Positions 12,379 through 48,009 are shown, numbered from the stretch's first letter. The stretch is DNA of 64,000 bases from a virus (IMGVR_UViG_3300031998_000058:8321-72320), one strand, 5' to 3'. Numbers and translations are program-made. Notes: generated by a model not told the origin, from the sequence alone.

Positions 12379-13668
12379 TTACATTGCTACGATTCTAGAA
12401 CGATATGTTCCCCAATTTGATGCATTCATAAAGGCATTATATAAACTAGATGGCACAAATATACTTCCACTTTGTCCTGCTACTGCTCTATAACCACCGA
12501 TAGGGGTGCTACTAAAAGCGTCGGTATTTTTCAATTCAGGAACCGCGGAAACTTCATTCAAATACAGAGACACCAAACGCCAGCAACTTTCAAACGCTCC
12601 CTTTCCGATGTATGCGCATTTTGGAAGGCTTAAAGTTGTGATTGAATGACAATTTGCAAAAGCCCACAGTTCAATAGTTGTGCACGCAGGAATACTAATG
12701 CTATTTAGATTTGTGCATCGTTCAAATGCACGGCTTCCTATAGACCCGCAAACCGAAAGGTTAATAGTTGTTAAAGAACTACAATATTGAAACGCCTGGT
12801 CTCCAGTAACAATGCAGTTCGGAATGCTGATATTCGTTAAAGTGCGGCAATATTGAAATGCTGCTGAATCAACCGCTGTGCATGCGGGAAGGTTTACGCT
12901 TGTTAGGGCGTAGCACTCTGCAAAAGCCATGTATCCAATAGTTGTGCAGGCAGGAAAGCTTGCCGATTCCAAAGAAGAACATAGTTCAAACGCAGCTTCT
13001 CCGATGTCTGTACACACTGGTAGGTTAATTGATGCCAAGGAATAACATGCGTAAAACGCTTCACTCCCCACATTTAAACACGATGGCAAAAACACTTCAC
13101 TTAATCCAGAGCATCCCAAAAATGCCCCTGATCCGACCATCGAACATACTGGAAAAGATATGGATGTAAGGTTTGTGCATGAACAGAAAGCTCTTTCCCC
13201 AATTTCTTGTACTCGTTCCATACTAATTGAAGTAAGACCGCTATTACGATAAACCGCATAATCTCTTACTTTCTTTAATGTATTTTCGGTCACGCTTCCA
13301 GATACCGAATATCCTCCCAGTAATACTTTCATTCCAGTACCACCTTCTGTCTGCCCGCTTGCTATTTTGAAGTCTGGATTAATATCATCCATCTCTGCTA
13401 TGGCTATATGATTATCCCCAGCGTTTCCGTTTCCCATTCGCAAAACCAGAACATTCGCGGATGATTCCACGTTGAATAGTTCCCTGGTGCATTGTATGGT
13501 TCTCTCACCGTCAAATGGAATCGTAACTGCAAGTGTTCCATCTCCATTATTCGTTGCTACCGTAGCACGATAGAAAGAAACATCATTTGAACATTCCTCT
13601 TCCAGTTTTGGCTTTATATAGTTTTTCCATAAGTTCTCAGCGAACTCGGTCATGTCTTGATTGTTCAT
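12379..13668 (-). CDS. BspA-type leucine-rich-repeat protein 1
   Basis: Start MNNQDM overlaps the upstream stop (ATGA). Shared N-terminal module, about 10 22-aa repeats (C..L..V.FP.C..IG..AF) and the conserved cap STPIGGY...SNW. Confidence 0.85.
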   Translation of the reverse strand: MNNQDMTEFAENLWKNYIKPKLEEECSNDVSFYRATVATNNGDGTLAVTIPFDGERTIQCTRELFNVESSANVLVLRMGNGNAGDNHIAIAEMDDINPDFKIASGQTEGGTGMKVLLGGYSVSGSVTENTLKKVRDYAVYRNSGLTSISMERVQEIGERAFCSCTNLTSISFPVCSMVGSGAFLGCSGLSEVFLPSCLNVGSEAFYACYSLASINLPVCTDIGEAAFELCSSLESASFPACTTIGYMAFAECYALTSVNLPACTAVDSAAFQYCRTLTNISIPNCIVTGDQAFQYCSSLTTINLSVCGSIGSRAFERCTNLNSISIPACTTIELWAFANCHSITTLSLPKCAYIGKGAFESCWRLVSLYLNEVSAVPELKNTDAFSSTPIGGYRAVAGQSGSIFVPSSLYNAFMNASNWGTYRSRIVAM

Positions 13669-15869
13669 ACAGGTACGATCCTTTCTGATATCGAAGCCCA
13701 ATTAGACGCAGCAACAAATGCACCGTATAAACTGGTCGGCACATATACTGATCCATATTGACCAGCAACATCGCTGTATCCCCCAATTGGTGTGGAGAAG
13801 AAAGCAGAGGTTCCAATTGATGTCACTTGCGATACTTTATCCAAGTATAGTGCAATCAAGTTGTAGCAACCGGAAAATATGCGCTGACCCAGATAAGTGC
13901 ATCTGGAAAGATACACCGTTGTCAGATTATGGCAAAGATAAAGCGCGTAAGCATCGGTCGATTGGCAGATTGGAAGGCTCACTGTTGTAAGATTATCGCA
14001 AACGCCAAGCGCCGCGTTCCCCAGAAATTCACATGCTGGAAAATACACCGATGTTAAACCTGTTCTGTTAAACGCCCCAGCTCTGATTGCAGAGCATACT
14101 GGAAAAGAAACCACGCTTATGTTTGAACAGTTCGCGAATGCATTATCGCCTAAATATTCACACGTTGGGAAATTAGCAGATTCCAAATTCATACATTCAT
14201 CAAACGCATAACTTCCGATATAAGAACACGTAGGAAAATTAATTGATTCTAGTCCTGCGCATCCACGAAATGCGCTGTTTCCAATATAAGAACATACTGG
14301 GGAAGATGCTTGTGTTATCGAGCATAGATAAAAAGCCTCCGCTCCAATATATTCACATGATGGAAAATGTGCATACGACAAGCTTGTACACCCAAAAAAT
14401 GCGCCCGCTTCAATGGATTTACATTTTGGAAAATAAGCGGACACCAATCTTGTGCAATCACGAAATGCACTGGTTCCAATATTCGAGCACAGTGGAAAAG
14501 ATGCCACAGTTATACCACAATACCGAAAAGCCTGATTCGATATCGTAGTACACGCTGGGAAGTCTGCGGATTCTAAACTCTGGCACTGGAAAAATGCACC
14601 TGCGCCTATATAAGAGCATTGAGGAAATGAAGCATATCTTAACGTATTACAATATGTGAATGCGGTTGCCCCAACATATGAGCACATAGGAAAATTGGCC
14701 GATACCAGATCAAAACAACTCCAAAACGCAGAACTTCCGATATAAGAACACACAGGAAAATCAGCTGACGCCAATTCGGTGCATTGATAAAACGCACCTA
14801 CTCCAATTGAAGAGCATCGTGGAAATGATATTGTATTTAAACCAAAACAAGACCGAAACGCATAAGCTCCAATTGTTTCACATAAAGGGAAATTGACGGA
14901 CGACAAACTCGTACACTGTGAAAAAGCACTACCGCCGATATAAGAGCACAGTGGAAATGAGACCTCCGTCAAGCTCGAACAATATCCGAATGCATACGAC
15001 CCAATATATTTGCACGAAGGAAAATGCGCAGATTCTAAGCCTGTGCAATTTGTAAATACCGTCTCACCAATATAAGAACACATTGGAAATAGAACATTGG
15101 TTAATCTAGAACAATACCAAAATGCATAGTTCCCAATATAAGTACATTGTGGGAAAGATACCGTTTCCAAATTCGAACACGATCCAAATGCTGTACTGCT
15201 AATATAAGTACACAACGGAAAGGAAGCCGTCGTCAGATTCGAACAAAATGCAAACGCGGTGTCTCCAATATGAGTGCACGACGGAAAAGAGACCGTCTCC
15301 AAACCAATACATGACGCGAATGCCGCCCCGCCAACATTAGTGCATACGGGGAATAAGGCTGCTGTCAAATTCGAACAGTATGCAAACGCAACACTACCGA
15401 TGTTGGTCACTTGTGGCATACTAATCGAGAGTAGACCAGAATTCGAATACGCTGCATAAGAACGAATGCTCAATAATGTGCTTTCAGAAACCAGTCCAGA
15501 TACCGAATATCCGCCAAGCAAAACTCTCAGTCCTATTTCTGTTTCAACAGGCTCTGCGGTTCCACCAAGCATCCATTCATCATCATCAGTAGCTTTGGCA
15601 ACGACCACATGGTTGTTTGCGACATTTCCATTTCCAAACCTACAGATTATAACCTGCTCTCCTTCGTTGACATCTTCAAGCGCCACTGTCCTGTTGATTG
15701 TTCTTTCTCCATCGAACGGTACTTTGACAGTCAAGGTTCCATCATCGTTCTTCGATACCACTGTAGCACGGTAATATGAAACGTCATTCGTGAACTCCTG
15801 CTCTATCTTCGGCTTTATGTAGTTGTTCCATAAGTTCTCAGCGAACTCGGTCATGTCATGATTGTTCAT
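13665..15869 (-). CDS. BspA-type leucine-rich-repeat protein 2 (longest)
   Basis: Start MNNHDM at an ATGA overlap; about 24 LRR units; same N-module and cap. Confidence 0.85.
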   Translation of the reverse strand: MNNHDMTEFAENLWNNYIKPKIEQEFTNDVSYYRATVVSKNDDGTLTVKVPFDGERTINRTVALEDVNEGEQVIICRFGNGNVANNHVVVAKATDDDEWMLGGTAEPVETEIGLRVLLGGYSVSGLVSESTLLSIRSYAAYSNSGLLSISMPQVTNIGSVAFAYCSNLTAALFPVCTNVGGAAFASCIGLETVSFPSCTHIGDTAFAFCSNLTTASFPLCTYISSTAFGSCSNLETVSFPQCTYIGNYAFWYCSRLTNVLFPMCSYIGETVFTNCTGLESAHFPSCKYIGSYAFGYCSSLTEVSFPLCSYIGGSAFSQCTSLSSVNFPLCETIGAYAFRSCFGLNTISFPRCSSIGVGAFYQCTELASADFPVCSYIGSSAFWSCFDLVSANFPMCSYVGATAFTYCNTLRYASFPQCSYIGAGAFFQCQSLESADFPACTTISNQAFRYCGITVASFPLCSNIGTSAFRDCTRLVSAYFPKCKSIEAGAFFGCTSLSYAHFPSCEYIGAEAFYLCSITQASSPVCSYIGNSAFRGCAGLESINFPTCSYIGSYAFDECMNLESANFPTCEYLGDNAFANCSNISVVSFPVCSAIRAGAFNRTGLTSVYFPACEFLGNAALGVCDNLTTVSLPICQSTDAYALYLCHNLTTVYLSRCTYLGQRIFSGCYNLIALYLDKVSQVTSIGTSAFFSTPIGGYSDVAGQYGSVYVPTSLYGAFVAASNWASISERIVPV

Positions 15870-16843
15870 ACAGGTACGATCCTCGATGATATATTTGACC
15901 AGTTGTTTGCACTGCAAAAATTACTGTATAGACTTGCGGGTACAAACACACTTCCGTATCTACCAGCCGATCCGCTATATCCTCCAATGGGAGTTGAATT
16001 AAAAGTGTCATATTGTAAAGTTGTTACTTGAGATACACTTTGCAAGTATAATGAAATCAAATTAGTGCATTTGTAAAACACACTATATCCGATGCTGCTA
16101 CATTTCTGAATTTCAGCTACAGATAAAAGTGTACAATTTTCAAATGCATGACTCTCAATACTTTCACAAACAGGCATGGATATCTCTTTCAATGATACAC
16201 AATTTGCGAAATCATAGTCGAACACATGCTTACACTTTGGCAAGTATACAGAGGCTAAATTCGAACAATTTTCAAACGTATGCCCTCCAAGCCCAGAACA
16301 TACTGGCAACGATACTTCACTAAGGTTTGTACAGAAACTAAACGCCCTACCAGCAACATTTTCACACGCAGGTAAGTGTACCGTAGTTAAAGCTCTACAG
16401 TTTATGAATGCATCGTGCCTTACAGTCTCGCATAAGGGAAAATATATTGACGCTAGGCTGATGCAGCTTTGAAAAGCACCGCTTCCCACATAGGTACAAG
16501 CTGGAAAGCTGATATTTTCCAGGGAACTACATCCATTAAAAGCATACATGCTAATACTTGTGCATGCAGGAAAACTAATTGTTTTCAGACTGCTACATTG
16601 AGTAAAAGCCATCTCTCCTACCTTCATGCACTTAGGAAATAGAGCTGTCGATATTCGATAACAACTTCGAAAAGCACTGCTCTCAATTTCTGTACACTTA
16701 GACAAGCTAACATATGTCAAATAACTCTTTCCGCTAAATGAACTGTACTCAACGCTTGGTGCAGTGCCAGTCAGCATAAATGTTGTATCTATTTCTATCG
16801 GTTCAGCTCCTCCGAGCGACCACGTTAATAGTTCTTCAGGCAT
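15866..16843 (-). CDS. BspA-type leucine-rich-repeat protein 3 (lacks the N-terminal module)
   Basis: Start MPEELL at 16843 with AAGGAG RBS; LRR units and cap only. Confidence 0.8.
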   Translation of the reverse strand: MPEELLTWSLGGAEPIEIDTTFMLTGTAPSVEYSSFSGKSYLTYVSLSKCTEIESSAFRSCYRISTALFPKCMKVGEMAFTQCSSLKTISFPACTSISMYAFNGCSSLENISFPACTYVGSGAFQSCISLASIYFPLCETVRHDAFINCRALTTVHLPACENVAGRAFSFCTNLSEVSLPVCSGLGGHTFENCSNLASVYLPKCKHVFDYDFANCVSLKEISMPVCESIESHAFENCTLLSVAEIQKCSSIGYSVFYKCTNLISLYLQSVSQVTTLQYDTFNSTPIGGYSGSAGRYGSVFVPASLYSNFCSANNWSNISSRIVPV

Positions 16844-16859
16844 GTTTTCTCCTTGTTGA

Positions 16860-18173
16860 TTACACAGGAACAATCCTTTCTGATATCGAAACCCAATTAG
16901 ACGCAGCAACAAATGCATTGTATAAACTTGCTGGTACAAATACGCTTCCATATCTCCTGGCTTCCACACTGTATCCACCGATAGGTGTGCTTGAAAATGT
17001 ATTATTACTAATAACAGGAACTGTAGATACTTCATTCAGGTACAGTGAGATCAATCGAAAGCATGCGCTAAATGGCAAGGTTCCAAAACCAGTACAGACC
17101 GGAAGGCTGACAGTTTCCAGTGATGCACAATATACAAATGTGCTACTACCAATCGAGGTACAAGCCGGAAGATTAACAGACCGTAAAGAACTACAGAAAC
17201 CAAAGGCCATGCTTCCAACATATGTACATGCCGGAAAACTAATTGTTTCCACAGCAGAGCATGCATAAAACGCATGGCTTGAAATAGTCTTACAGGTAGG
17301 CAGGCTGATGTTTTCCAGAGCTATACACCACCCGAACGCATCACTCCCAATAACTGAACAAACAGGAAGACTGACAGTTTTTAGCTTTGTACAAGCCTCA
17401 AATGCACTCATCCCAACAGATGTACAATTTGGAATATTGACAGTTTCCAAGGAACTACATTTAGAAAATGCTTCTGATTCCACACGCGTACAGACCGGAA
17501 GGCTAAGAGTTGAAATGTTAATGCACCCTAAAAACGCACGAGTTCCAACAAAGGAACACGAAGGAAGATTTATTTCCGTAAATGAAGAGCAATCCACAAA
17601 CGCATCATGGTCGATGTATGTACAGACTGGAAGACTTATTTCTGCAAGTGACAAGCACCATCTGAATGCGCTTGGCCCTACTGACAAACATGCACTAATG
17701 TTCACTTTTGACAGAGAGTAGCATTGTGCAAACGCACGGGTTCCGATATGAGTGCATTGCGGAAGGTCTACTTCTGTTAATGGGGTTGAATAAAACGCCA
17801 CGCTTGGAACACTGGATGCATTTCCCGTTAAAAGAAATGGTGTGTCTGCCTGTATAGGTCCTGGTCCTGGAACAGACCCATCACTATAGGTCATCATGGC
17901 AATATGGTTATCCGCAGCATTGCCGTTGCCATATCTCCAGACAATGACTTCTGAACCTTCTTCGATAGCATTCAGTTCCTTCGTGACTCTGATGGTCTTT
18001 TCACTGTCAAAAGGTGCTTTTACATTCAAAGTCCCGTTTCCATTATTAGCAATAACGACAGCACGGTAATAAGAAACCTTATCTTTGGCAAAAGTTTCCC
18101 TGTACTTTGGCTTGATGTAATTATTCCAAAGGTTTTCGGCAAGTTCTGCCATTGCTGCGCTGTCGTTATCCAT
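16860..18173 (-). CDS. BspA-type leucine-rich-repeat protein 4
   Basis: MDNDSAAMAELAENLWNNYIKPK N-module, LRR units and cap. Confidence 0.85.
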   Translation of the reverse strand: MDNDSAAMAELAENLWNNYIKPKYRETFAKDKVSYYRAVVIANNGNGTLNVKAPFDSEKTIRVTKELNAIEEGSEVIVWRYGNGNAADNHIAMMTYSDGSVPGPGPIQADTPFLLTGNASSVPSVAFYSTPLTEVDLPQCTHIGTRAFAQCYSLSKVNISACLSVGPSAFRWCLSLAEISLPVCTYIDHDAFVDCSSFTEINLPSCSFVGTRAFLGCINISTLSLPVCTRVESEAFSKCSSLETVNIPNCTSVGMSAFEACTKLKTVSLPVCSVIGSDAFGWCIALENISLPTCKTISSHAFYACSAVETISFPACTYVGSMAFGFCSSLRSVNLPACTSIGSSTFVYCASLETVSLPVCTGFGTLPFSACFRLISLYLNEVSTVPVISNNTFSSTPIGGYSVEARRYGSVFVPASLYNAFVAASNWVSISERIVPV

Positions 18174-18622: not shown

Positions 18623-19642
18623 CTACACTCCTTTAATTTCTTCGACGTGTTTCAGCCACGCGTCTATTGTTATCGTCTCCATCGGCATTCCTTCCGCTAC
18701 TGCCCTGTTTCGGATTCCGTTGGAGATAGACATCTTCTCCTGTTCGGTCAACTTCTCCCACCGATGTTTATGTTTCGCAAAGTAATCTGCGAACCGGTTC
18801 TCTACTGCATCACGATAGTCCTGGTTATTAATGTCAATCCATTCCTTCTTGTTCATGGTATAGTAAGCATCAAATATCATGAACGCCGCATAGAAGTTTG
18901 CTTTGTCATCGTGACCTCTCCTGCTGAATTCATCAACCAGGGCATCATTGGAATCCAGCATATTATTATAGGTCTTTAAGATATAATCCTTGTCGTGCCT
19001 GCAAACGCTTTCCTCTCTCCACTTCCAGAGATAGAACGGTGTCTGGCAATACTTGGCTTCCTTCGTTAAGTTCTGTGCAAGGATGTTGAAGTAACTGTCC
19101 TCATGGATCGTCAATTTCGGGTTGAACCTGATATTCTTGTCCAGAAGGTATGAGCGCCTGTGGAACTTACCGTGAACAAATGTCGAATCCATATCGTGAT
19201 TCATATAGACTATCTGCTTCCTGTCCGGCGTTCTGGTCTCTTCGATGAAACAACTTGTGATTGTATCAAATCCACCGTCCTTGTTCATTTCATTGAAGAT
19301 AATATACAGACCGCATACGTGGCAGTACATATCGTCTATATCACACCAGGTTATGTACTCTGCTTTAGCGGCATCCAGGCAAGAGTTTCTTGCTGCCGAT
19401 ACTCCCGCATGTTCCTGCCTAATCTGCTTGACTTCGAACGGATACTTCCTTGCTATAACGTATTCCCCTGTAGCATCAAGGTCTGTCGTGAACTCAAAGT
19501 CATGGGATTCTTCCCCGTCATGACAAATGATTACACCGATTTCGTTGAAATCCACGGACTGCTGAACAGCTATGGAATCAAGTAACGGGATAATAACTTC
19601 TGCCGGTTCCTTGTAGTGCGGAACTAAAATCTGCAATTTCAT
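18623..19642 (-). CDS. Glycosyltransferase family 2 (GT-A fold)
   Basis: ILVPHYKE...LLDSI; GVSAARN..LD.A...YI.WCDIDD (DxD motif); EDSYF. Confidence 0.85.
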   Translation of the reverse strand: MKLQILVPHYKEPAEVIIPLLDSIAVQQSVDFNEIGVIICHDGEESHDFEFTTDLDATGEYVIARKYPFEVKQIRQEHAGVSAARNSCLDAAKAEYITWCDIDDMYCHVCGLYIIFNEMNKDGGFDTITSCFIEETRTPDRKQIVYMNHDMDSTFVHGKFHRRSYLLDKNIRFNPKLTIHEDSYFNILAQNLTKEAKYCQTPFYLWKWREESVCRHDKDYILKTYNNMLDSNDALVDEFSRRGHDDKANFYAAFMIFDAYYTMNKKEWIDINNQDYRDAVENRFADYFAKHKHRWEKLTEQEKMSISNGIRNRAVAEGMPMETITIDAWLKHVEEIKGV

Positions 19643-19865: not shown

Positions 19866-20214
19866 TTATCTGTCGCCCACAATTGCCACATCTGAACACG
19901 GCATGATAAATCTATACATTCGTGTGCTACCCGGATACACAGAGGAGCCGGTAGTACTTGGAACGGTCTGGTTGCCAATATAAGCTTTATCAGATACCAA
20001 AGGTGGTGAAGACAAGTATCCCGAAGTATAAACAATCACGTAATCCCCGACCTGAACATTAATCGGTAAATCACTTGCCGTATATTCTTCTGTAGTGTTA
20101 TCAGGGTTAGTGACTATTATTGTTGTTATTAAGGCGAGTGCCTCAGAATTAGCACTCAACTCAAAGCTACTCGTACCCCCCCCCTAAAATTGTGGTTGAA
20201 GCATTAAAAATCAT
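19866..20214 (-). pseudogene. Small beta-domain (InlB-B-repeat-like) gene, frameshifted at a G9 tract
   Basis: RBS AGGAGG and ATG at 20214 read MIFNASTTILGGGYE*. With G8 at 20176-20184 the leader joins the 19866-20159 frame, which ends ...YRFIMPCSDVAI. Confidence 0.7.
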
Positions 20215-20283
20215 ATTGTTCCTCCTAACTGATTACTTAAAAATATTATCGTTGTTATAATGTATTGGCGTTAACATTATTAA

Positions 20284-20676
20284 TTATTCTGAGCTTTCAC
20301 GCTGTAAAATAAGTAAAACATCTGTAAGTCCCTGTTCAAAGGATATATCTATTGAAGAACCGTAAAAAACTGACTGTATGACTGAAAAAGTTACTTGATA
20401 CTCTTGTTCGTCGAAATCATCACCTTCCATTCTTAGAGGCACACTATACGTATCCTCCGCGTAGCTTGTTGCGATACCTACATCGTTATAAAGTTCACCA
20501 TTCAGGTATCCAATTCCATAAACCCACATAGGTTTATCTGTTAAAATCGTAACGCCCGGCAATTCCACAAATTTACCAGAATAATCCTCTGATGTGAAAT
20601 GTAAGACAACTAAATTAGGGCTGTCTATACCCCCCCCTTTTTTTTGAGTCACAGTTGTAGTCATATTGAATATCAT
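20284..20676 (-). CDS. Small hypothetical fibre/decoration-cluster protein with an in-frame A8-G8 tract
   Basis: MIFNMTTTVTQKKGGG...; A8G8 at 20630-20645. Confidence 0.7.
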   Translation of the reverse strand: MIFNMTTTVTQKKGGGIDSPNLVVLHFTSEDYSGKFVELPGVTILTDKPMWVYGIGYLNGELYNDVGIATSYAEDTYSVPLRMEGDDFDEQEYQVTFSVIQSVFYGSSIDISFEQGLTDVLLILQRESSE

Positions 20677-20689
20677 ATATGCCTCCTTA

Positions 20690-20977
20690 TCAATCCCTGC
20701 TCCATGTCACTGTTATATCCGAACTTGGCATTTCGTAAAAATCATAAAAGATCATATCATAGAGCGATTTAATCGGATTTAATGTGTCACCTCCGGCAGT
20801 AACAGTCGCAGTTCCACGTGCATAAGTGACTACAATGATAGTACCGGCCTCCTCTTGAGTTAACGTCGTTTCGAAATCTCTGATGGAAAGAATTCCTACT
20901 GACCCAGATTTTGCTATGTTGTAGAGCGTCCCTCCGCCCCCGCCGCTATTAGTCTCGCTCAAATTAAAAATTGCCAT
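20690..20977 (-). CDS. Small InlB-B-repeat-like (Flg_new_2-like) protein
   Basis: MAIFN...GGGGG leader; EEAGTIIVVT...FYEMPSSDITVT. Confidence 0.6.
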   Translation of the reverse strand: MAIFNLSETNSGGGGGTLYNIAKSGSVGILSIRDFETTLTQEEAGTIIVVTYARGTATVTAGGDTLNPIKSLYDMIFYDFYEMPSSDITVTWSRD

Positions 20978-21038
20978 AGTTACCTCCTAAGAACCTGCCA
21001 CGGTGTTACCCGTAGCAGGAAATAATCGTTTTGTGTTG

Positions 21039-21274
21039 TTAACTTTTTCCTGCGCTTACAAATACATCATAATCTGGCATTGTAAACGTCCATGTGTCCC
21101 CAGTAGCGAGTGTTCCGCTGGATGCTATTGTTTGACTGGATGAATTTGTTACCCAAGCAGAACAGTTCCTTATTGCAGTGACTGTTACTATTTCCCCAGC
21201 TACTGCACTTTGTTTATCCAACGCAACATAGCCTGTATTATTATTTGTAATGCTATGAGGGACTAGCTGCTCAG
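21039..21274 (-). other. InlB-B-repeat-like domain lacking its own RBS; joins the 474-aa fibre protein if G9 becomes G8
   Basis: SAVAGEIVTVT...WTFTMPDYDVFVSA; G9 at 21275-21283. Confidence 0.65.
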
Positions 21275-22695
21275 CCCCCCCCCTCAATAATCATCACATT
21301 GACAGCTACAGCAGCCGTGGGAGTTGTTGAGCAGTTAAAGGTAAGCGAATTAGCCGCCTGTGCCGAGCAGTAAACATCCGCTGCCGTGTATACATCCTTG
21401 CTTGCCGGAGCGTATGTAACGATGATTCCTGAGTTCGCAGTAACGCCTGAAACGGTCTTCGTACAAGAGCCGTTAGACCAGTCAGAAGTGGCGATATTTA
21501 CAGTAGCATAGGTAATGGAAACACCACCGGACGCTGCCGCCGCTGCCCATGCTCCGCTGACTACTGTAAGCACCTTGTCATTGTCGGACGATGTTACTGA
21601 CGGAAGTGCCGGGATTGATATATTTCCGCTTCCAAGTAAGCTGGTGCTGTTGATAGTCTTAATATTTGTTCCGCTTACCAGTGTGTCCTGCTTGTCCTCT
21701 ACCATCTCAAGCAGAGACTTTTCTGCCGTCCAATGTGCCTCTGTCCATGACTCTGCCGTGGTAATAGCCGTATTGCACTTATAGATGCCATAACTGTATC
21801 TTACTCTGTCTCCAACAGCGTATGTCTCAGATGAAGAGTAAGCAGGAATATTCGTAATCAAAGTTCCAGCTATCGAGTTCATTGCTTTCGGTGTTAAAGC
21901 TAACGCCTCACTGGTACTGGTTGCCGATGAACTCAGCTTCGTCAGGCCGTAATAAGTAGTCGTAGCAGTTCCTTTTGCACTCATGACAAAATTCGTGCCG
22001 TCATACACAAAGTCAATTACTTCACCTGATACCCAGTAATATCTGTCAGTAGTTGTAGTTCCTACTCTGGCGATGTTAGATGCGCCTGTTCCATCTACGT
22101 TCAGAGTGGCGGTGCCATTATATGAGTTACCGCTGGTCATCTTTATACGAACCATTGCGCCGGTGGTCTTGACAAAATCGCCATTGGTCGTGGTTGCTAC
22201 TTTAGCCGCTGTACCGGCACTGGTAGCACAAGTTGCGTAATATGTCTTATATGATCCAGGTGACTGACAGATATATCTGTAGTAAGTCCCATCATACATA
22301 AAGTAGACGACATTGTTTGCCGCCCACTTACAGAAGTTGGTCGCGCTTGCTACAGCGGAACCAACATAGATTGCCGCCGCACCTGTGGAGTTGATGTTCA
22401 ATGTAGGCGCGGCTGCCGTGTTTGCTGTTGAGAATAATACGCCGATGATCGCTCCCTTTTCTTTGGCGTATCCCGAACAGGTCACGGCTTTTGCCGCTGT
22501 CGATGCCGTTGTGGAGCAGGTTCCGTACCATGTGGTCGTACCGCCAACGGATATGTCCCCTGATCCCAACAGGCTTGTATTATTAATGGTCTTGATATTT
22601 GTGCCGCTGGTCAGAATCGGCTGATAGGTTGCATCAGCTTTATCTTTGATGTCGCCGACCAAATATTCAACACCTGTGTTGTCTATGTATGCCAT
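21271..22695 (-). CDS. Tail fibre/adhesin-like protein
   Basis: Two YxTCxT...AAK...G..F...N...TLN...TGA modules, two SGTNIKTIN.TSLLGSG motifs and a CBM5/12-like YSSSETYAVGDRVRY...W segment. Confidence 0.65.
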   Translation of the reverse strand: MAYIDNTGVEYLVGDIKDKADATYQPILTSGTNIKTINNTSLLGSGDISVGGTTTWYGTCSTTASTAAKAVTCSGYAKEKGAIIGVLFSTANTAAAPTLNINSTGAAAIYVGSAVASATNFCKWAANNVVYFMYDGTYYRYICQSPGSYKTYYATCATSAGTAAKVATTTNGDFVKTTGAMVRIKMTSGNSYNGTATLNVDGTGASNIARVGTTTTDRYYWVSGEVIDFVYDGTNFVMSAKGTATTTYYGLTKLSSSATSTSEALALTPKAMNSIAGTLITNIPAYSSSETYAVGDRVRYSYGIYKCNTAITTAESWTEAHWTAEKSLLEMVEDKQDTLVSGTNIKTINSTSLLGSGNISIPALPSVTSSDNDKVLTVVSGAWAAAAASGGVSITYATVNIATSDWSNGSCTKTVSGVTANSGIIVTYAPASKDVYTAADVYCSAQAANSLTFNCSTTPTAAVAVNVMIIEGGG

Positions 22696-22751
22696 TGCAT
22701 TCCTCCTTTGTTAGAAATGTTTAATTGGCGTGTTGGTTGTATAATGTTGTT

Positions 22752-23026
22752 TTATCTAGGGTCGCTATCAGTAATAGTAATATTGCTTTCTGGCATTTCA
22801 AAATAATATATCCTCTGGTAATCCTGAGGAGCCATAAATCCTGTGTCTACAAATGTCACCTCTGGAACAGATGTAATATCTCCACTCATATCTGCACATA
22901 TATACACGGTATCACCGGCATAGGCCTCAGTGATTATATCGCTTACTTGCCCTCTATCGCCTGGTCTTGATCCGGGCGTAAAACTCGCATAAGCCGTAGT
23001 TCCACTAATCGAGTAGGCTGTCACTG
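22752..23026 (-). other. InlB-B-repeat-like domain; joins the 164-aa protein if G8 becomes G9
   Basis: EAYAGDTVYI...IYYFEMPESNITIT; G8 at 23027-23034. Confidence 0.65.
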
Positions 23027-23515
23027 CCCCCCCCACGCAGAATTGACTGCTGTCGCAATCTCCTGTTCTGTCATGGCGGTCATGCTGGTTCCTACACTCC
23101 CGACATACTGATAATGACTCCCGTCATAAACAAACTCATGCGCTCCGGCTGCCAGAACCTCCGCACTGATTGCCGAAGAGCCACGGTATACCGCCACTGC
23201 GCCAGTGGAATTGACGTTCAGGGTGGGTGAAGCCGCCGTGTTGCCATTACTGAACGTAATGATAATAGACTTGCCTGAAGCCAGCGTGAATCCAGAACAA
23301 GTCACAGTTTTGGCAGCCGTCCCTGCTGCCGTAGTACATGTACCATAATCGGGGCCTCCGCTTGCCGCTGAGATTACCCCGTTGTTGTCAACATTAATCG
23401 TAGTGCCGTCCGGCTGAACCACGCCCAAGCTGGACGTGGTTGCCGGTACAACACGACTATCTTTCAAATCATATGATTGATTGTTTGGGAGGACGATTGC
23501 TTTGATATTCGCCAT
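23021..23515 (-). CDS. Fibre-like protein with one YGTCTT...AAK module
   Basis: MANIKAIVLPN...; the module is homologous to those in 21271-22695; ends AWGGQ* at the G-tract. Confidence 0.65.
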   Translation of the reverse strand: MANIKAIVLPNNQSYDLKDSRVVPATTSSLGVVQPDGTTINVDNNGVISAASGGPDYGTCTTAAGTAAKTVTCSGFTLASGKSIIITFSNGNTAASPTLNVNSTGAVAVYRGSSAISAEVLAAGAHEFVYDGSHYQYVGSVGTSMTAMTEQEIATAVNSAWGGQ

Positions 23516-23553
23516 GATTCCCTCCTAATATAGTCTGTGTGATGTGTAGTAAA

Positions 23554-24930
23554 TTATTCGCTATCGGGTGTAACCGTGATCTTAGCCGCAGAGCCGGAGA
23601 AGGTTGCCGCAGACGGTACAGTAATGTTGCCGGTTTCCAGTCTGACCGCAGAACCAGAGAAGGAAGCAGCAGAAGGAACAGCAATAGCTCCAGTTTCGAG
23701 ACGTACACCAGTGCCGCTGAAGGAAGCGGAAGCCGGTACGCTGATGTTTCCGGTGACAAGCCTTGCGCCAGTACCAGAGAAGGAAGCTGCGGACGGAACA
23801 CTGATGTTGCCAGTCTCAAGCCTTACAGCAGAACCTGAGAAGGAACCAGCTGTCGGAAGGTCGAACGCAGCATTCGCCAGGGTCATGTAATCGCCAGCGA
23901 ACTCGTAAGCAGCATCGCCAGTCTTAACAGTGACATCAGTTGCAGTGATGGAATCGCCAGTGGTGAATCCAAGCTGATAGAACGTAAGGACTTCATCAGC
24001 TACATTGTAGTAGGTGATGGCATTGTCCGGAGCAGAAGCAGTCGGAGCCGCCGCTACTACGCTCTTGGCTACAGTGACAGCAGACGGATTGTGGATCGTG
24101 GATGTAGCGCCTGCGCTTGCAGTGGAAATAGTACCTGCGCACTGGAAGGTGTGAGCCGCAGATGTGCCAGCCGAAGCAGTGATGGCCGGAGCTGTGCTGG
24201 AAGTCGTGAAGGATACAGTACCAGCAGGTGTGTAAGTAGCATCTCCAGAATCAGCTACAGAGACAGCAGCCTTTCTGCCTTCTTCTGTCAGAGTTATGGA
24301 GCCAGCAGGTGTGTAGGTCGCATCTCCTGAAGAAGCAGCCGATACGGTCGCAGTCCTTGCTTCCTCTGTCAGAGTGATCGAACCTGCGGGAGTGTAGGTC
24401 GCTGCACCAGAAGCTGCGGGGCTGACCGCTGCACTTCTGTTTTCCTCGGTAAGAGTGATGGAACCAGCCGGTGTATAAGTAGCTTCACCGGTAGCTGCCT
24501 GACTGACCGCTACAGTCTCAGTGCCATTGGTAAGAGTAATCGTACCGGCAGGAGTGTAGTTCGCAGATGCAGTATCGACATAAGCCATGTCGCCAAGATC
24601 AGACAGGTCGATAGCTGTGGTTCCTAATTTCTCCCAGGAGTAGTTGTTGCCAACTTTTACAGTGATGTACTCATCATATACGTTGTTCTCACGATCCTCG
24701 CCGGGAACAAGATAGATGGTGTACATTGTGGCGGACGAAGCTACCAGAGTACCAGTGATGGTCGTAGCGCCGTCTTTCCATGTAACATCTTTCGGGGTCG
24801 TGGCAGCATCGGTACTGATAAGGTACTCAAACGAGTTTAAGCTCTCTATAGCTGACCGTGCGACTTCATCCTTGATGTCATAGGTTACGCCATTAGGCAT
24901 CGTAATTTGTTTGATTGTGGGATTAGCCAT
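23554..24930 (-). CDS. Repetitive Ala/Thr/Ser-rich fibre or collar protein
   Basis: Start MANPTIK with GAAAGGAG RBS. Four 27-aa ATYTPAG repeats and four 20-aa SFSG..RL.TG.I.VP repeats. Confidence 0.65.
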   Translation of the reverse strand: MANPTIKQITMPNGVTYDIKDEVARSAIESLNSFEYLISTDAATTPKDVTWKDGATTITGTLVASSATMYTIYLVPGEDRENNVYDEYITVKVGNNYSWEKLGTTAIDLSDLGDMAYVDTASANYTPAGTITLTNGTETVAVSQAATGEATYTPAGSITLTEENRSAAVSPAASGAATYTPAGSITLTEEARTATVSAASSGDATYTPAGSITLTEEGRKAAVSVADSGDATYTPAGTVSFTTSSTAPAITASAGTSAAHTFQCAGTISTASAGATSTIHNPSAVTVAKSVVAAAPTASAPDNAITYYNVADEVLTFYQLGFTTGDSITATDVTVKTGDAAYEFAGDYMTLANAAFDLPTAGSFSGSAVRLETGNISVPSAASFSGTGARLVTGNISVPASASFSGTGVRLETGAIAVPSAASFSGSAVRLETGNITVPSAATFSGSAAKITVTPDSE

Positions 24931-24951
24931 TGTTAACAGTTCTCCTTTCAA

Positions 24952-25464
24952 TTAAAGATTGTTTTGAAATATTAGTGTTTCCGATTCGCATGAAACGGCG
25001 AGTCGCTCATTCCAGATTGCTTTTTCTTCAGGTGTAACGTGGATTGACATATCGTTGATATGAATGCCCAATCTCTCTTCCACCAGCTCGATAGCTTCCG
25101 CCATGGATACCTTGACTACATCTGTTCCTGTCCACGATCCTGTATGGTTGTTCTTGAACCGATACAAATCGTCTTCATAGATTACGTAGTCCCCCGCCTT
25201 ATACGACAAGGTGCTATCGAACTCAGGCGCAATCATGTCCTGCGTTTTTGCTAACTCTTCTACGATTTCCCCTGTGGATGATGCCTTCATCCAGCAATCT
25301 TCGTCCCATGGACCGGTTGTGGATTTGGTGCATATATAAAGCTCATCGTCATAGATGCAGTATTCACCAGGCTTATAGCTTTTGCTCGGATCATAGTCTT
25401 CCGCCGATGGTGAGCCGCCCCCGCCAGACAAGGCTTTTATTAAGATATAATCTGTTACTTTCAT
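24952..25464 (-). CDS. Protein with two CBM5/12-like carbohydrate-binding motifs
   Basis: YDPSKSYKPGEYCIYDDELY..W and FDSTLSYKAGDYVIYEDDLY..W. Confidence 0.6.
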   Translation of the reverse strand: MKVTDYILIKALSGGGGSPSAEDYDPSKSYKPGEYCIYDDELYICTKSTTGPWDEDCWMKASSTGEIVEELAKTQDMIAPEFDSTLSYKAGDYVIYEDDLYRFKNNHTGSWTGTDVVKVSMAEAIELVEERLGIHINDMSIHVTPEEKAIWNERLAVSCESETLIFQNNL

Positions 25465-25679: not shown

Positions 25680-27002
25680 TTAGATTCCTTCTAACCAAAG
25701 CGTATGAGATACGCTGTGTTCTCCATATGATGCTGTTATCGTTAATGGCGTTACGCTTCCACCCCAGCATGTCACGGCCGCTTGATTGGGATATTCGGCA
25801 ATCGTATATGCTTCTTCATCCGCACCATTTGCTGTCCATGTGATTGCCTGTTCTGTTGCCCGTCCTTCTTCGTAGTAATAAGCCTCAAATGTGATTGAGC
25901 TGCCATACGGCAAACGTCCCGGATAACTATTCAGAAACGCTACATGAGGATCCGCATCAATTCCTTCTACATTAACAGTGAAATTAATGTTCCGGTCGGG
26001 ATTCTGATCCAGTATGACTCTGATCGTTGCGATTCCTTCGCCTACCGCAGTCACATTCCCTTCCGCGTCAACAGTCAGAACGCTTTCATCGCTGCTCTCC
26101 CACGAATAACTTACCGGGTGTTCTTCCGTTGAAGAAACTTCCTCCGTCTCGCCCAGGTAGCTTCTGGTACTGCGTGCCATAAACTGTTCTGTATCTCCCA
26201 CTGTCAAAGTACTGCTGCCAAGGACATTTATGTCCCAAGCAAATGTCTTGCCTCCGGCCACGCGGTTGACCATATCATCCGTGTTGTCGTTTGGCTCGTC
26301 GTATCTAAGTGCAAATTCCATCAATCCGACGGAATCGTCTTCAAAAGTGAATTCAGCCTGAAAGTCCGAAAAGCCTGTAAGCATATATGCCGATGAGCCG
26401 AGAATGATCCTGCTGTTATGGAACAGTTGTTTTGTCGCTGCATTGGATTGGATCGCTGCAGGGAAATATCCTTTCGTGATCATGGTTGATCTCTGTGAAT
26501 CCGGAGTGCTGGCCCTCATCATGTCAAGGTTCACGGCCAACGGTTCCCTGCAAAGATTTCCGTAATAGTCCAGGTAATTCCAAGTGGTATCGCATCTTCT
26601 GACAACAGCTGTCCCGCCATCCCCCATGTTTCTCGGGTCATCTACCAGCCAAACGCTTCCCAGCGCAATAATCTTTGCCCCTTTCCGCAGATACTCATAT
26701 TGACGTTCTGCTATTAGGATCCGTTTATGATCATCGGCTGTAGATGTAAGCGTTGCGTTACTTACGATATCCGTGAACCGCAGATGAACTTTCGTATATT
26801 CAAACGGTTCTTCCGGGTTTAATCCCTGGACTTCTGCCTCAACGTAATTGCTGGAGTATTTTGCTTTTTCCTGTATGAATGTTCTTGTCTCCGGGGCGTT
26901 ATATTCCTTTTGCTTACCGCTGTATTGTTTTGGACGATAGCTCCTATAAGAAAGAGAGGCGCTGTTTATTATTCTTGTTTTAGCAAGTTCATCTTTGAGC
27001 AC
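25680..27002 (-). CDS. Structural (neck/head-closure-like) protein with an Ig-like domain
   Basis: GTG start with AAGGAGG; Big_2-like segment SWESSDESVLTVDAEGNVTAVGEGIATI. Confidence 0.55.
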   Translation of the reverse strand: MLKDELAKTRIINSASLSYRSYRPKQYSGKQKEYNAPETRTFIQEKAKYSSNYVEAEVQGLNPEEPFEYTKVHLRFTDIVSNATLTSTADDHKRILIAERQYEYLRKGAKIIALGSVWLVDDPRNMGDGGTAVVRRCDTTWNYLDYYGNLCREPLAVNLDMMRASTPDSQRSTMITKGYFPAAIQSNAATKQLFHNSRIILGSSAYMLTGFSDFQAEFTFEDDSVGLMEFALRYDEPNDNTDDMVNRVAGGKTFAWDINVLGSSTLTVGDTEQFMARSTRSYLGETEEVSSTEEHPVSYSWESSDESVLTVDAEGNVTAVGEGIATIRVILDQNPDRNINFTVNVEGIDADPHVAFLNSYPGRLPYGSSITFEAYYYEEGRATEQAITWTANGADEEAYTIAEYPNQAAVTCWGGSVTPLTITASYGEHSVSHTLWLEGI

Positions 27003-33494: not shown

Positions 33495-35294
33495 TCAACC
33501 ACCATAACTATCCTGATCTTTTTCCTGGCCTTCACTGGTAATCCCTTCGCTCTGCGGTCTCCCACCCTCATCTCTTGTGGGGTCTGCATTCGGATCCGTG
33601 ATTTTTCCGTGTGGCGGCAATCCAGATCCTTCCGGTGATCCGCTGAACGATGTCACAAGCGGCAGTCTCTTATCCAGTATTCCGCTTTCGTATATCGCAT
33701 CGCTCCAGGCAATATCTTCAATGATGCTTCTGTCGTTCAGTGCATTCAGCATCATGTTAGCCGGCAGGATGCCGAGCGTCATTTCTTTTCTCGCCTCTTC
33801 CCTGAGACGTTCATCTGATTCCAGGTCACCAAACATGTAAAATCTAAAGTCGTATTTAAGATTCAGGTTATCGATGACGCTGTTCATCATCCGTTCCATG
33901 CAACGATAAATTGTTTTGGAGAACTGCGACTCTATCTTCAGTGATATCTGTGCCAGACCAGACCTTGCATCTGATGTAGTGGGGATAATTCCTCCCAGTC
34001 CGGCTTTATTCATCGTGTCCTGGTATCCCTGAGATACAATGTTCGTAGCGCCTGGAGCTTCCGGAAGAGTCTCCATCCGCATGTTCTTAAATGGTGCTGA
34101 GTATATTCCTATGCCACTGGTATTGTTCATGTTTAAGGTGTTGTACCACAAAGCCTCAAACATCATTCGTCCAGCATTACTAAGCTTGTACTGATCCTCT
34201 GTATATGAATCCTTGTTCTCATAATACGGTATCTCACCGGTCAAAATGGCTATCAATGGATTCTGGAGGAGCTCAAGCTGAAGGCTTTCCAGCTGCGACA
34301 GCTGAAGCATATCAAGAAGCAGGCCCGTGAAAGGTGTTGCAACATCACGCGATACATCGTCTATCTCAAACGTAAAGACCTTATCTACCGGCAGCGTTAC
34401 CCAATAGAACCATCTTCCATTCTGGCAATATACATCTGCATCCGGCTTACGCTCTGCAAGCTTTACTATGTTGATAGAATTTCCGCCCGCATAGACTATT
34501 TTGCTTCCTACGCCACGCGGTATTTCTTCCAGACTCATATCATAATCTTCAAGATACGGCAGGAACAAATCGCCAAACTGTCTGGGATCCGTCCCGTATT
34601 GCGAAAAGTACATCATGTCAAAAGCCACAGTGTACTTGGATATATTGTTGTATCCTACTATCTTCGTCCAATCACTCGGAAGCTGCTGCAGGAATGCGTG
34701 ATTAACCTTGTTATGAGCTTTATCAACACTGTATCTCGGCGTGTAAAAAACCTTTCCCTCTTGTAGCGACTGTCCGGCTATCTGGTGTGTATAAGACTTG
34801 ATATCAAATGTTGTGCGAAGCTTCTCTAACAGTTTCCACTCACGCCAGAAGTCGGGTTTTGCTGCATCTTCTTTCTCTGTGAGATACGGAGCTACATAGC
34901 TGTGATAGGTTAAAAGATTCTGATATACGACTCTCGTATGGAAGAATGGATACGACGGGCTTTCGAGCCAGTGTACGGCCTGTCTGATTTCTTTCTCGTT
35001 GGAATCAACATCGTCCAACATTGACTCCACTTGGCTTTTCTTGAACTTCCGCGCCATCGATGATATGTGTTTGGCGCGACGATTCTGTGCATATGGATCC
35101 CGATTCCCAAGTGCTCCAGTTCCGGCCGCGATTCCAAAGGCCGCGACAAGCCGATCATACGGCATATCACCATATTGTTTGGACAGTTCTTGAACTCGCC
35201 TGGTTATTTCAGGAAAGCTCGCATACTTCAAACTGTTAAGTTCGGTCTCTACGTTAACCCTGTCCATCCTTTGCCTTTTCTTCCCGTAATGCAT
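33495..35294 (-). CDS. Portal protein
   Basis: About 590 aa directly after TerL; acidic/Pro-rich tail; layout reminiscent of SPbeta-type head modules. Confidence 0.7.
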   Translation of the reverse strand: MHYGKKRQRMDRVNVETELNSLKYASFPEITRRVQELSKQYGDMPYDRLVAAFGIAAGTGALGNRDPYAQNRRAKHISSMARKFKKSQVESMLDDVDSNEKEIRQAVHWLESPSYPFFHTRVVYQNLLTYHSYVAPYLTEKEDAAKPDFWREWKLLEKLRTTFDIKSYTHQIAGQSLQEGKVFYTPRYSVDKAHNKVNHAFLQQLPSDWTKIVGYNNISKYTVAFDMMYFSQYGTDPRQFGDLFLPYLEDYDMSLEEIPRGVGSKIVYAGGNSINIVKLAERKPDADVYCQNGRWFYWVTLPVDKVFTFEIDDVSRDVATPFTGLLLDMLQLSQLESLQLELLQNPLIAILTGEIPYYENKDSYTEDQYKLSNAGRMMFEALWYNTLNMNNTSGIGIYSAPFKNMRMETLPEAPGATNIVSQGYQDTMNKAGLGGIIPTTSDARSGLAQISLKIESQFSKTIYRCMERMMNSVIDNLNLKYDFRFYMFGDLESDERLREEARKEMTLGILPANMMLNALNDRSIIEDIAWSDAIYESGILDKRLPLVTSFSGSPEGSGLPPHGKITDPNADPTRDEGGRPQSEGITSEGQEKDQDSYGG

Positions 35295-35598
35295 TCTCCA
35301 GACGGTCCACCATCAACACCATATCATTCGATATTTGTTCACGGTGCTTTGCTGTCTCTTCAGCAATAATCACCGTATTGCAGTCTAAGAGCCAACGCAC
35401 ATCATCATCTGTCAAATAGCTAAGTTCACTTTCGCTTATTGTATTGTAGCATTTATTATATTTCTTTTTGTATCCCTTTACGTAAAATAAGATATATGTA
35501 GGGGTAATCCGATAAAATCTTTCGTCCTGAACCACCTCTATGTTCTCCATTGTGGTTTCAAGCGCGTACAATCGATACCTCACTTTTCTCTTACTCAT
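35254..35598 (-). CDS. Hypothetical protein between TerL and portal
   Basis: 114-aa ORF overlapping both neighbours. Confidence 0.55.
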   Translation of the reverse strand: MSKRKVRYRLYALETTMENIEVVQDERFYRITPTYILFYVKGYKKKYNKCYNTISESELSYLTDDDVRWLLDCNTVIIAEETAKHREQISNDMVLMVDRLENALREEKAKDGQG

Positions 35599-47521: not shown

Positions 47522-48009
47522 TTAATGAATCACAATAAAGTCATGTGTTAACAGTCCGTTACTGATCACAACACAATTCTGCCTCGGTCGGTTCAGCTCT
47601 TCTCCTGTACCCCCCCTAAAATGAAGTGTATGCGCTTTCTGAACATCATGAGCTGTGTTATATAATCAAACGGTATTCCATCATTCAGCCATAATAACGG
47701 CATTATCAATGCATACTTCATTCCAAGAGCGTCCAGGCGTTTCACTACGTCTTTCTTCCGGCTGAATGGAGGGTTAGAAATAACAGCCTGCGCTCCTTTG
47801 GGCGGTTCCGTTTCAAAGAAATCAGTGTCGGTACAGATACACCGGTGACCATGTTCCGTAAGGATCCGGTCAAATGCGCCTCCCTTATCGTTGAACGGAA
47901 GCCATACTGTCATCGGACGTTTAATATGCTGCGCGATAGTTTCTGCATCTTTGTCACGCGTAAAATACTCATCTCCTCTTATACTTTCCAGATCCGTAAT
48001 TCCACCCAT
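47522..48009 (-). pseudogene. N6-adenine DNA methyltransferase-like gene, frameshifted near the C-terminus at a G7 tract
   Basis: DEYFT...VWLPF...DFF...ISNPPFS (motif IV). Stops at 47593 with G7; G8 extends it with GTGEELNRPRQNCVVISNGLLTHDFIVIH* to 47522, next to the following RBS. Confidence 0.65.

Follow-up and report, generated by a model that had tools for sequence, protein, structure and literature searches.

Why should a gut or rumen phage carry four long runs of guanine in its fibre genes, each placed just ahead of a small domain? The question is raised by a 64,000-nucleotide stretch of virus DNA, hereafter the window, which comprises bases 8321-72320 of the 72,320-base IMG/VR virus record IMGVR_UViG_3300031998_000058 (estimated completeness 93%) and to which all positions refer. 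Its G+C content is 45% and the minus strand carries nearly all the genes. A first-pass annotation of the window had described four G-tracts within 3 kb and read them as slippage switches. We consider it probable, though well short of certain, that the four tracts are contingency tracts subject to DNA slippage, located at Gly-linker domain boundaries of the fibre cluster, where they would give heritable and reversible ON/OFF or short/long states.

All four tracts are C-runs on the plus strand, i.e., G on the coding minus strand. In what follows D1-D5 are five copies of a small domain, L numbers are DNA loci from database scans and P numbers are related proteins; open reading frames are abbreviated as ORFs, amino acids as aa, Shine-Dalgarno sequences as SD and immunoglobulin-like domains as Ig-like. 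The tracts are:

20176-20184, minus strand: tract 1, G9, in an OFF register; G8 or G11 would be ON
20630-20645, minus strand: tract 2, composite A8G8 on the coding strand (G8 at 20630-20637, A8 at 20638-20645), encoding KKGGG, in frame
21275-21283, minus strand: tract 3, G9; the 474-aa fibre stops after EGGG, and G8 would fuse D4
23027-23034, minus strand: tract 4, G8; the 164-aa protein stops after WGGQ, and G9 would fuse D5, or else the run is the SD for the D5 GTG

As assembled, the leader at tract 1 reads MIFNASTTILGGGYE followed by a stop, and the loss of one G joins it to the 19866-20159 frame. One G less at tract 3 joins the 474-aa fibre to the 77-aa frame 21039-21272, while one G more at tract 4 joins the 164-aa protein to the 90-aa frame 22752-23024; the predicted fusion-junction peptides are ...VMIIEGGAEQLVPH... 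and ...NSAWGGAVTAYS... The coordinates and lengths in the first-pass annotation were exact and the frames it gave at all four tracts are those that we read directly. Its term “binary switch” has to be replaced, since each tract has three registers, only one of them ON.

These are the only G/C runs of at least 8 in the window and in the entire record, and they are confined to 2.9 kb of the 64 kb. A first-order composition model expects about 0.5 such runs in the window against the 4 observed, so that the tracts exceed chance expectation. Each is found in Gly codons immediately 5' of a beta-sandwich domain of 77-130 aa and uses GGG, which is the least used Gly codon in the long ORFs (15%); ORFs of at least 200 aa hold two other Gly triplets, both of mixed codons. 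At G9, G8, G9 and G8 they all reach the length of about 7 or more, inside an ORF or translation start region, by which homopolymeric contingency tracts are recognized, and from the frames themselves a change of one base in either direction swaps a productive frame and a truncated or altered one. The sole further G/C run of at least 7 is a G7 at 47610-47616 (minus strand), six codons before the stop of a 138-aa ORF (47593-48009) for which a Pfam search gave no match; its flanks are those of tract 1 (TTTTAG-Gn-GTAC).

The domains that follow the tracts belong to one small type present in five copies (alignments A1 and A4), of which D1-D3 are free-standing and D4-D5 lie behind complete proteins:

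19866..20214, minus strand: D1, split by tract 1 into a leader ORF at 20167-20214 (MIFNASTTILGGGYE, then stop) and a domain frame at 19866-20183 that opens exactly at the tract
20284..20676, minus strand: D2, 130 aa, MIFN leader, with tract 2 in frame and hence ON
20690..20977, minus strand: D3, 95 aa, MAIFN leader, with an interrupted Gly run (GGC GGG GGC GGA GGG) and no slippery tract
21039..21274, minus strand: D4, 77 aa, out of frame 3' of the 474-aa fibre, without a start codon or SD of its own
22752..23026, minus strand: D5, 90 aa, out of frame 3' of the 164-aa protein, with a GTG at 23022-23024 that overlaps the TGA stop (GTGA)

Each of the three free-standing copies opens with a short M(A)IFN leader that runs into a Gly linker and is preceded by a strong ribosome-binding site, which for D1 is a strong SD (TTAGGAGGAACAAT) ahead of the ATG at 20214. 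No break is present in the paralogues D2 and D3 at the position where tract 1 splits D1, and the mixed Gly codons of D3 bear out the earlier description of the 20690 gene as having the same leader with an interrupted G-run. Because D2 and D3 are in frame, and because ON alleles of analogous genes exist in L021 and L029 (described below), the leader is the N-terminus of the protein. For the same reason, namely that each of these paralogues and ON alleles encodes one continuous protein, we rejected a leader-peptide or translational-coupling arrangement for tracts 1 and 2. A hairpin at 20135-20165 (minus strand, 8-bp stem, 12 nucleotides (nt) 3' of tract 1) encloses a TTG at 20159; it is marginal (z -1.75, with 10 of 200 shuffles folding as well). 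Were tract 1 a G10, the leader stop would overlap this TTG (TTGA).

A motif a.aG..V.v ... F.MP..Dv.i is common to the domains and visible in alignments A1 and A4, in agreement with the A.AG..V.V...F.MP..D(V/I) noticed in the first pass. The accompanying label of InlB B-repeat/Flg_new_2 did not hold up as well. Against PF18998 (Flg_new_2) D4 scored 17.3 bits, below the gathering cut-off of 23.6 (E 0.0047), and there was no match to this family for D1, D2, D3, D5 or nine related proteins or domains. A search for sequence homologues of D3 found none, two were found for D5, and a profile search against PDB sequences gave nothing. The structural neighbours of D3 in the Atlas are Ig-like domains. 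The AlphaFold2 (AF2) model of D5 is all-beta, with a predicted local distance difference test score (pLDDT) of 88; compared with solved structures its best matches were generic Ig-like adhesin domains (Z at most 4.7), and InlB was not among the matches listed. Foldseek found no match for the D5 model in PDB, and the best row in BFVD was a gut-phage “Bacterial repeat domain-containing protein” (E 0.016, template-modelling score (TM) 0.50). We would therefore call the domains small Ig-like beta-sandwiches, with InlB B-repeats as a putative assignment only.

Is there any sign that such tracts change in length? A scan of IMG/VR for the pattern ATG ATH TTY AAY, 9-33 nt, then G8 or longer returned 13 loci, 6 of which were real counterparts of the small genes (L020, L021, L022, L026, L028, and L029). 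Five of these, all but L021, read MIFNTTTPAGNAGG(G) and continue into a variable domain. Their tracts are G9 in L020, G10 in L022, G10 in L026 and G9 in L028, all out of frame, and G8 in frame in L029. L020, L026, and L028 are one phage sequence with identical flanks, and the alignment of L026 with L028 extends over 4,242 bp with 0 mismatches and a single gap, which is the tract (G10 vs. G9). Since these two differ in nothing but the tract, at least one tract of the MIFN-leader type is, judging from the sequences, length-variable in nature. The sixth counterpart, in the temperate phage L021, follows a fibre in the order fibre, G8 (placed after the stop of the fibre and ahead of the next start), three MIFN genes, holins, endolysin, and integrase. 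Of its MIFN genes the first has an interrupted Gly run, the second a G9 in frame (ON) and the third a G8 out of frame (OFF). Five such records, two of which are 100% complete, have no G/C run of at least 8 outside a fibre linker, a MIFN gene or an intervening gap.

The G8 of L021 (6396-6403) stands exactly in the gap from the stop of the fibre to the GTG/ATG that opens the next MIFN gene (TAA GGGGGGGG TGTG ATG). From its position it can only be usable as a ribosome-binding site, the length of which would set spacing and not frame. Other simple repeats accompany these genes. In L020, L022, L026, and L029 the next small gene (leader MSFIRVKC) lies ca. 330 bp downstream of the MIFN tract, and its leader is directly followed by (GA)n, with roughly 13, 21, 13, and 8 units, respectively; the repeat reads RERERE... 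and precedes a domain ending FVMPAEDVTIS. A C8 in Pro codons (DVTPPS) at 4598-4605 of L026 belongs to the linker of a collagen-like fibre of 886 aa, past its end module (...EVWVVIQ), and the same run is in frame in L020, L026, L028, and L029 (4/4). Because (GA)n and C8 (Pro) runs occur at such junctions in the L020 group, simple repeats at the junctions of leaders or fibre ends with small domains are apparently a recurring design.

Tracts 3 and 4 concern the ends of larger proteins, which are two of the three fibre-like proteins of the cluster:

21271..22695, minus strand: fibre, 474 aa, with a Phage_fiber_2 repeat, a CBM_5_12-like stretch and a C-terminal module ending ...NVMIIE
23021..23515, minus strand: fibre-like protein, 164 aa, with the N-terminus MANIKAIVLPNNQSYDLKD, resembling both neighbouring fibre proteins
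23554..24951, minus strand: fibre-like protein, 465 aa, repeat-rich, with the same kind of N-terminus (MANPTIKQITMPNGVTYDIKD) and no tract

The 474-aa protein scored 31.2 bits against PF03406 (Phage_fiber_2), above the 22-bit threshold, and its relatives P0008, P0009, and P0115 scored 47-51 bits. An N-terminal motif MA.I...(T/S)YD(I/L)KD is common to the 465-, 164-, and 474-aa proteins (21271-24951, minus strand), P0212 and the L021 fibre. Such shared N-termini suggest that the fibre-like proteins could be alternative fibres for one docking site.

The end module of the 474-aa fibre (...APASK..YCSAQ..LTF.C...NVMII) is present in many relatives. Since several of them end right there (P0011, P0047, P0063, P0088, and P0119), the short form of the 474-aa fibre is a natural complete protein. 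Others stop just past the Gly run, as the fibre of the window does (P0021, P0074, and P0083), and a third set reads through the Gly run in frame into an extra domain (P0002, P0008, P0009, P0115, P0212, and the L021 fibre). BLASTP finds a homologue of D4 (E 2e-9) in the extension that the L021 fibre carries in frame at its C-terminus, where the junction is encoded GAG GGA GGG, giving the same residues by an interrupted run. D5 shares 50% identity with the C-terminal domain that P0212 carries in frame. The AF2 model of P0212 consists of a confident, self-contained end module (pLDDT 91-98), a beta domain folded on its own and, between them, a linker of low confidence or disordered. This is how an optional extra domain, held by the Gly run as inter-domain linker, would be expected to look. 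That two of the switches alter domain content and not merely expression, as proposed in the first pass, is thereby supported by the fused relatives, with the reservation that tract 4 can also be read as an SD. For the C-terminus of the 164-aa protein a search found no informative relatives.

The G runs are not a by-product of the composition of the fibre family, because 27 related fibre loci (IMG/VR, JGI metagenomes, and GTDB genomes) are without a G/C run of at least 7. A search of the same three collections with the fibre alignment A3 found only distant fibres, without G runs; P0083 searched against IMG/VR gave 17 loci, none with G runs; and a search of IMG/VR with the whole 474-aa fibre found nothing. 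An unrelated phage protein in L060 (3021-3046) and L068 (4560-4585), ...PSDISANVVIVFGGG, has a G8 run and continues in frame into a further region. It is perhaps another, unrelated in-frame junction of an NVVIVFGGG fibre end with poly-G. Some of the relatives have C-termini of the form GGG(D/N/E)(N/D/S)(K) (P0002, P0008, P0009, P0021, and P0115). We considered the tails of the read-through relatives (GGGDN, GGGNN, GGGGGEN, and GGGND) as second switches, a candidate that was dropped, as the tail of P0021 aligns with them. Such tails are probably a conserved gene end that holds the ribosome-binding site of the next gene, as in L012 and L021.

Could tract 4 have the same function, with no fusion involved? 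At this tract alone, the two proteins could be a coupled gene pair in which the G8 is the ribosome-binding site and D5 is made from its GTG as a free 90-aa protein, a reading that we hold to be doubtful, if better placed than the other alternatives. The sequence GGGGGGGG CA GTGA gives an SD-to-start spacing of ca. 5 nt, the source gene caller places the start of the D5 protein at that GTG (P0210), and in L021 the G8 between the fibre stop and the next start must serve as an SD. On the other side, the GGAV ahead of the D5 GTG is kept in frame in the fused proteins P0002 (EGGAVAYS) and P0212 (DGAVT...TYSISG), which argues for fusion, and D5 is without the MIFN leader of its free-standing paralogues.

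Another alternative leaves the length of the DNA fixed. In programmed ribosomal frameshifting or transcriptional slippage each infected cell would make mostly the short fibre, and a set fraction would have an extra Ig-like domain. There are precedents (Atkins et al., 2016, PMC5009743): phage structural proteins often gain C-terminal Ig-like domains by +1 or -1 frameshifting, in either direction, and a G7 run in herpes TK is the site of low-level frameshifting. Besides, G GGG GGG lets Gly-tRNA re-pair perfectly, and D4 and D5 are Ig-like beta domains at C-termini. However, tracts 1 and 2 come so early in small genes (10-12 codons from the start) that the short product would be a peptide of 15 aa and not one of two designed isoforms; the length of the tract varies in otherwise identical analogues (G9 vs. 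G10), and relatives encode the junction in frame with interrupted codons. The RNA 3' of tracts 3 and 4 has no unusually stable fold (z +0.63 and -1.24, respectively), although the absence of a predicted hairpin still leaves room for slippage. We therefore regard frameshifting as the whole explanation as unlikely, with the proviso that ribosomal or transcriptional slippage and DNA slippage can coexist on one run.

That the tract lengths are simply errors of sequencing or assembly is an obvious concern, as several platforms tend to miscall homopolymers of 8-9, the sequencing chemistry behind this metagenome assembly is unknown, and a G18 at the contig end of L063 looks like an artefact. Tracts 1, 3, and 4 would then in reality be in frame, the domains constitutive or fused, and there would be no switching. 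But the rest of the record reads cleanly, with long intact ORFs (2,088, 750, 612, and 599 aa), and the frame is kept across the A8 adjoining tract 2. For tracts 1, 3, and 4 to be errors, the assembly would have had to go wrong both ways (-1, -1, +1), and three separately assembled analogue contigs have G9, G10, and G9, none of them the ON length; error cannot restore one in-frame value. Even if the consensus lengths were wrong the tracts would stay the sole long G runs and slippage-prone. We find this explanation improbable. As improbable in our view, though still a candidate, are scars of decay or recombination, by which cassettes would have been exchanged at leader or Gly-run junctions leaving D1, D4, and D5 as unexpressed remnants: cassette exchange is clear in L020, L022, and L029, where leader and 3' flank are conserved and the domain is only ca. 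60% identical, the extra domains of P0002, P0008, P0009, and P0115 have Gly runs on both sides, the analogues are mostly OFF (4/5 in the L020 group), and it has been suggested, as cited in PMC5009743, that chance decides whether a moving Ig-like domain arrives in frame or out of it, but D1, D4, and D5 are intact (open for 77-105 codons with no internal stop, family motif and fold kept), several lineages depart from their codon preference by using homopolymeric GGG at just these junctions, and ON alleles are present in L029 and L021.

Several observations weigh against switching by DNA slippage, or at least limit how far it can be taken. The comparison of tracts 3 and 4 with the fibre relatives was at the protein level only, and a back-translated pattern scan of IMG/VR for the fibre end with a G7/G8 junction gave nothing or chance matches. 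The comparison of related genomes proposed as a check in the first-pass annotation was fruitful for the analogous MIFN gene, with its alternative lengths and frames, and yielded no further example of the fibre-end junction. L020, L026, and L028 are all OFF (G9, G10, and G9), which is compatible with a gene drifting after inactivation, and the fold matches of the switched domains are generic only. The SD reading of tract 4 counts here as well. Finally, we infer the heterogeneity of length at the four tracts from comparison; slippage itself, a binding role of the domains and a phenotypic effect in this phage are likewise what we infer. What speaks for the earlier proposal of slippage switches is thus the placement of the tracts, the fused homologues and the G8, G9, and G10 of the analogues.

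If the tracts do act by DNA slippage, the following sequence of events can be envisaged. During replication of the phage DNA the polymerase would slip and add or remove a G, giving mixed genotypes in one burst. At tracts 1 and 2 the register would set whether a small protein, consisting of MIFN leader, Gly linker and beta-sandwich, is made at all. At tract 3, and probably at tract 4, it would set the choice between the natural fibre end and one extra Ig-like domain on a flexible linker. The outcome would be heritable and reversible variation, from particle to particle, of the outermost fibre domains, the presumed purpose being bet-hedging over the cell-surface or gut-surface ligands that the particle binds.

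A broader reading, which we put forward only tentatively, is that the homopolymer of a Gly/Pro linker may be a dual module joint in gut and rumen phages that infect Clostridia. It would be at once a random switch and, together with the MIFN leader, a recombination point at which cassettes are swapped between free and fused forms. Such a switchboard of fibre-tip domains, built on poly-G, poly-C, and (GA)n, would do the work of a diversity-generating retroelement or an invertible fibre segment, without an enzyme.

The cluster is located between the head genes and the tail genes, and its surroundings, in the reading order of the minus strand, are:

35591-37429, minus strand: terminase, first in the order
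33495-35294, minus strand: portal, after the terminase and before the capsid-region genes
25680-27002, minus strand: Ig-domain structural protein, 3' of the capsid-region genes
24952-25464, minus strand: CBM_5_12 protein, preceding the three fibre-like proteins
1780-8046, minus strand: tape measure, last in the order

From the CBM_5_12 protein onward come the fibre-like proteins of 465, 164, and 474 aa and then the three small paralogous genes, followed by a GT2 glycosyltransferase, an XhlA-like protein, four BspA-type LRR proteins and the tape measure. The four BspA-type LRR genes (LRR_5, up to 224 bits) and the GT2 glycosyltransferase, at 12379-18173 and 18623-19642, lie between the fibre cluster and the tail genes. 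A head or neck placement of the fibres is as likely as a tail one, because the fibre genes are directly 3' of the capsid genes both in the window and in L026. A DNA relative of this phage was not found among the INPHARED phages.

If the tracts slip, a single phage genome could yield as many as 3^4 combinations of tract registers, each of the four surface domains coming or going on its own, and no dedicated enzyme would be involved. Poly-G phase variation of host-recognition genes, known from Campylobacter phages, would then also be found in gut and rumen phages of Clostridia, and alongside the killing of a gene there would be a second mode, the addition of a domain to a finished fibre. There would be practical consequences too, as annotation pipelines would call such fibres truncated or the appended domains orphan genes, and host-range prediction from a single consensus sequence would miss the alternative forms.

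How does this compare with what is known from other phages? The closest likeness is to the Campylobacter phages, in which hypermutable polyG tracts lead to phase-variable expression of receptor-binding proteins (Sørensen et al., 2021, Cell Rep 35:109214, as cited in PMC10579305, PMC12823448, and PMC10877375). As far as these citing accounts describe them, the two situations share several tracts in host-recognition or fibre genes and frame-shifting changes of length that lead to mixed progeny without recourse to a reverse transcriptase or invertase. Here, however, the phage and host group is another one (the relatives come from Oscillospiraceae, Ruminiclostridium, and rumen or gut samples) and there is no sequence relationship. 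Two of the tracts are at a C-terminal linker, where they would add or remove a domain instead of turning the protein off as in the loci those accounts summarize, and the design recurs with poly-C (Pro) and (GA)n, a point in which it also departs from the Campylobacter loci as reported there.

Contingency loci of T2, T4, and other phages, in which simple repeats within ORFs slip and give reversible frameshift heterogeneity for bet-hedging, have been described recently, with simple repeats being under-represented in the tail-fibre genes of coliphages (Gomez, Barrick and Waters, bioRxiv 10.1101/2025.10.21.683753). Those loci are mostly runs of at least 6 across all gene classes, whereas here the long runs are found only in the fibre cluster and at domain junctions. 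The third comparison is with the C-terminal Ig-like extensions that arise by programmed +1/-1 frameshifting in T3, A2, A118, A500, and PSA (Atkins et al., 2016, PMC5009743; Fraser et al., 2006, cited there). As in those phages, a small Ig-like domain lies out of frame behind a complete structural protein and short and long forms are possible. Unlike in them, the site is a long G homopolymer, the length of which varies between otherwise identical relatives, no stimulatory RNA structure is predicted, and the same type of tract also gates whole small genes near their start. The proposed phenomenon is of a known kind, poly-G phase variation; what is new here is the host group, the placement at inter-domain linkers, by which the domain content of the protein and not the activity of the gene would change, and the recurrence of the design with other repeats.

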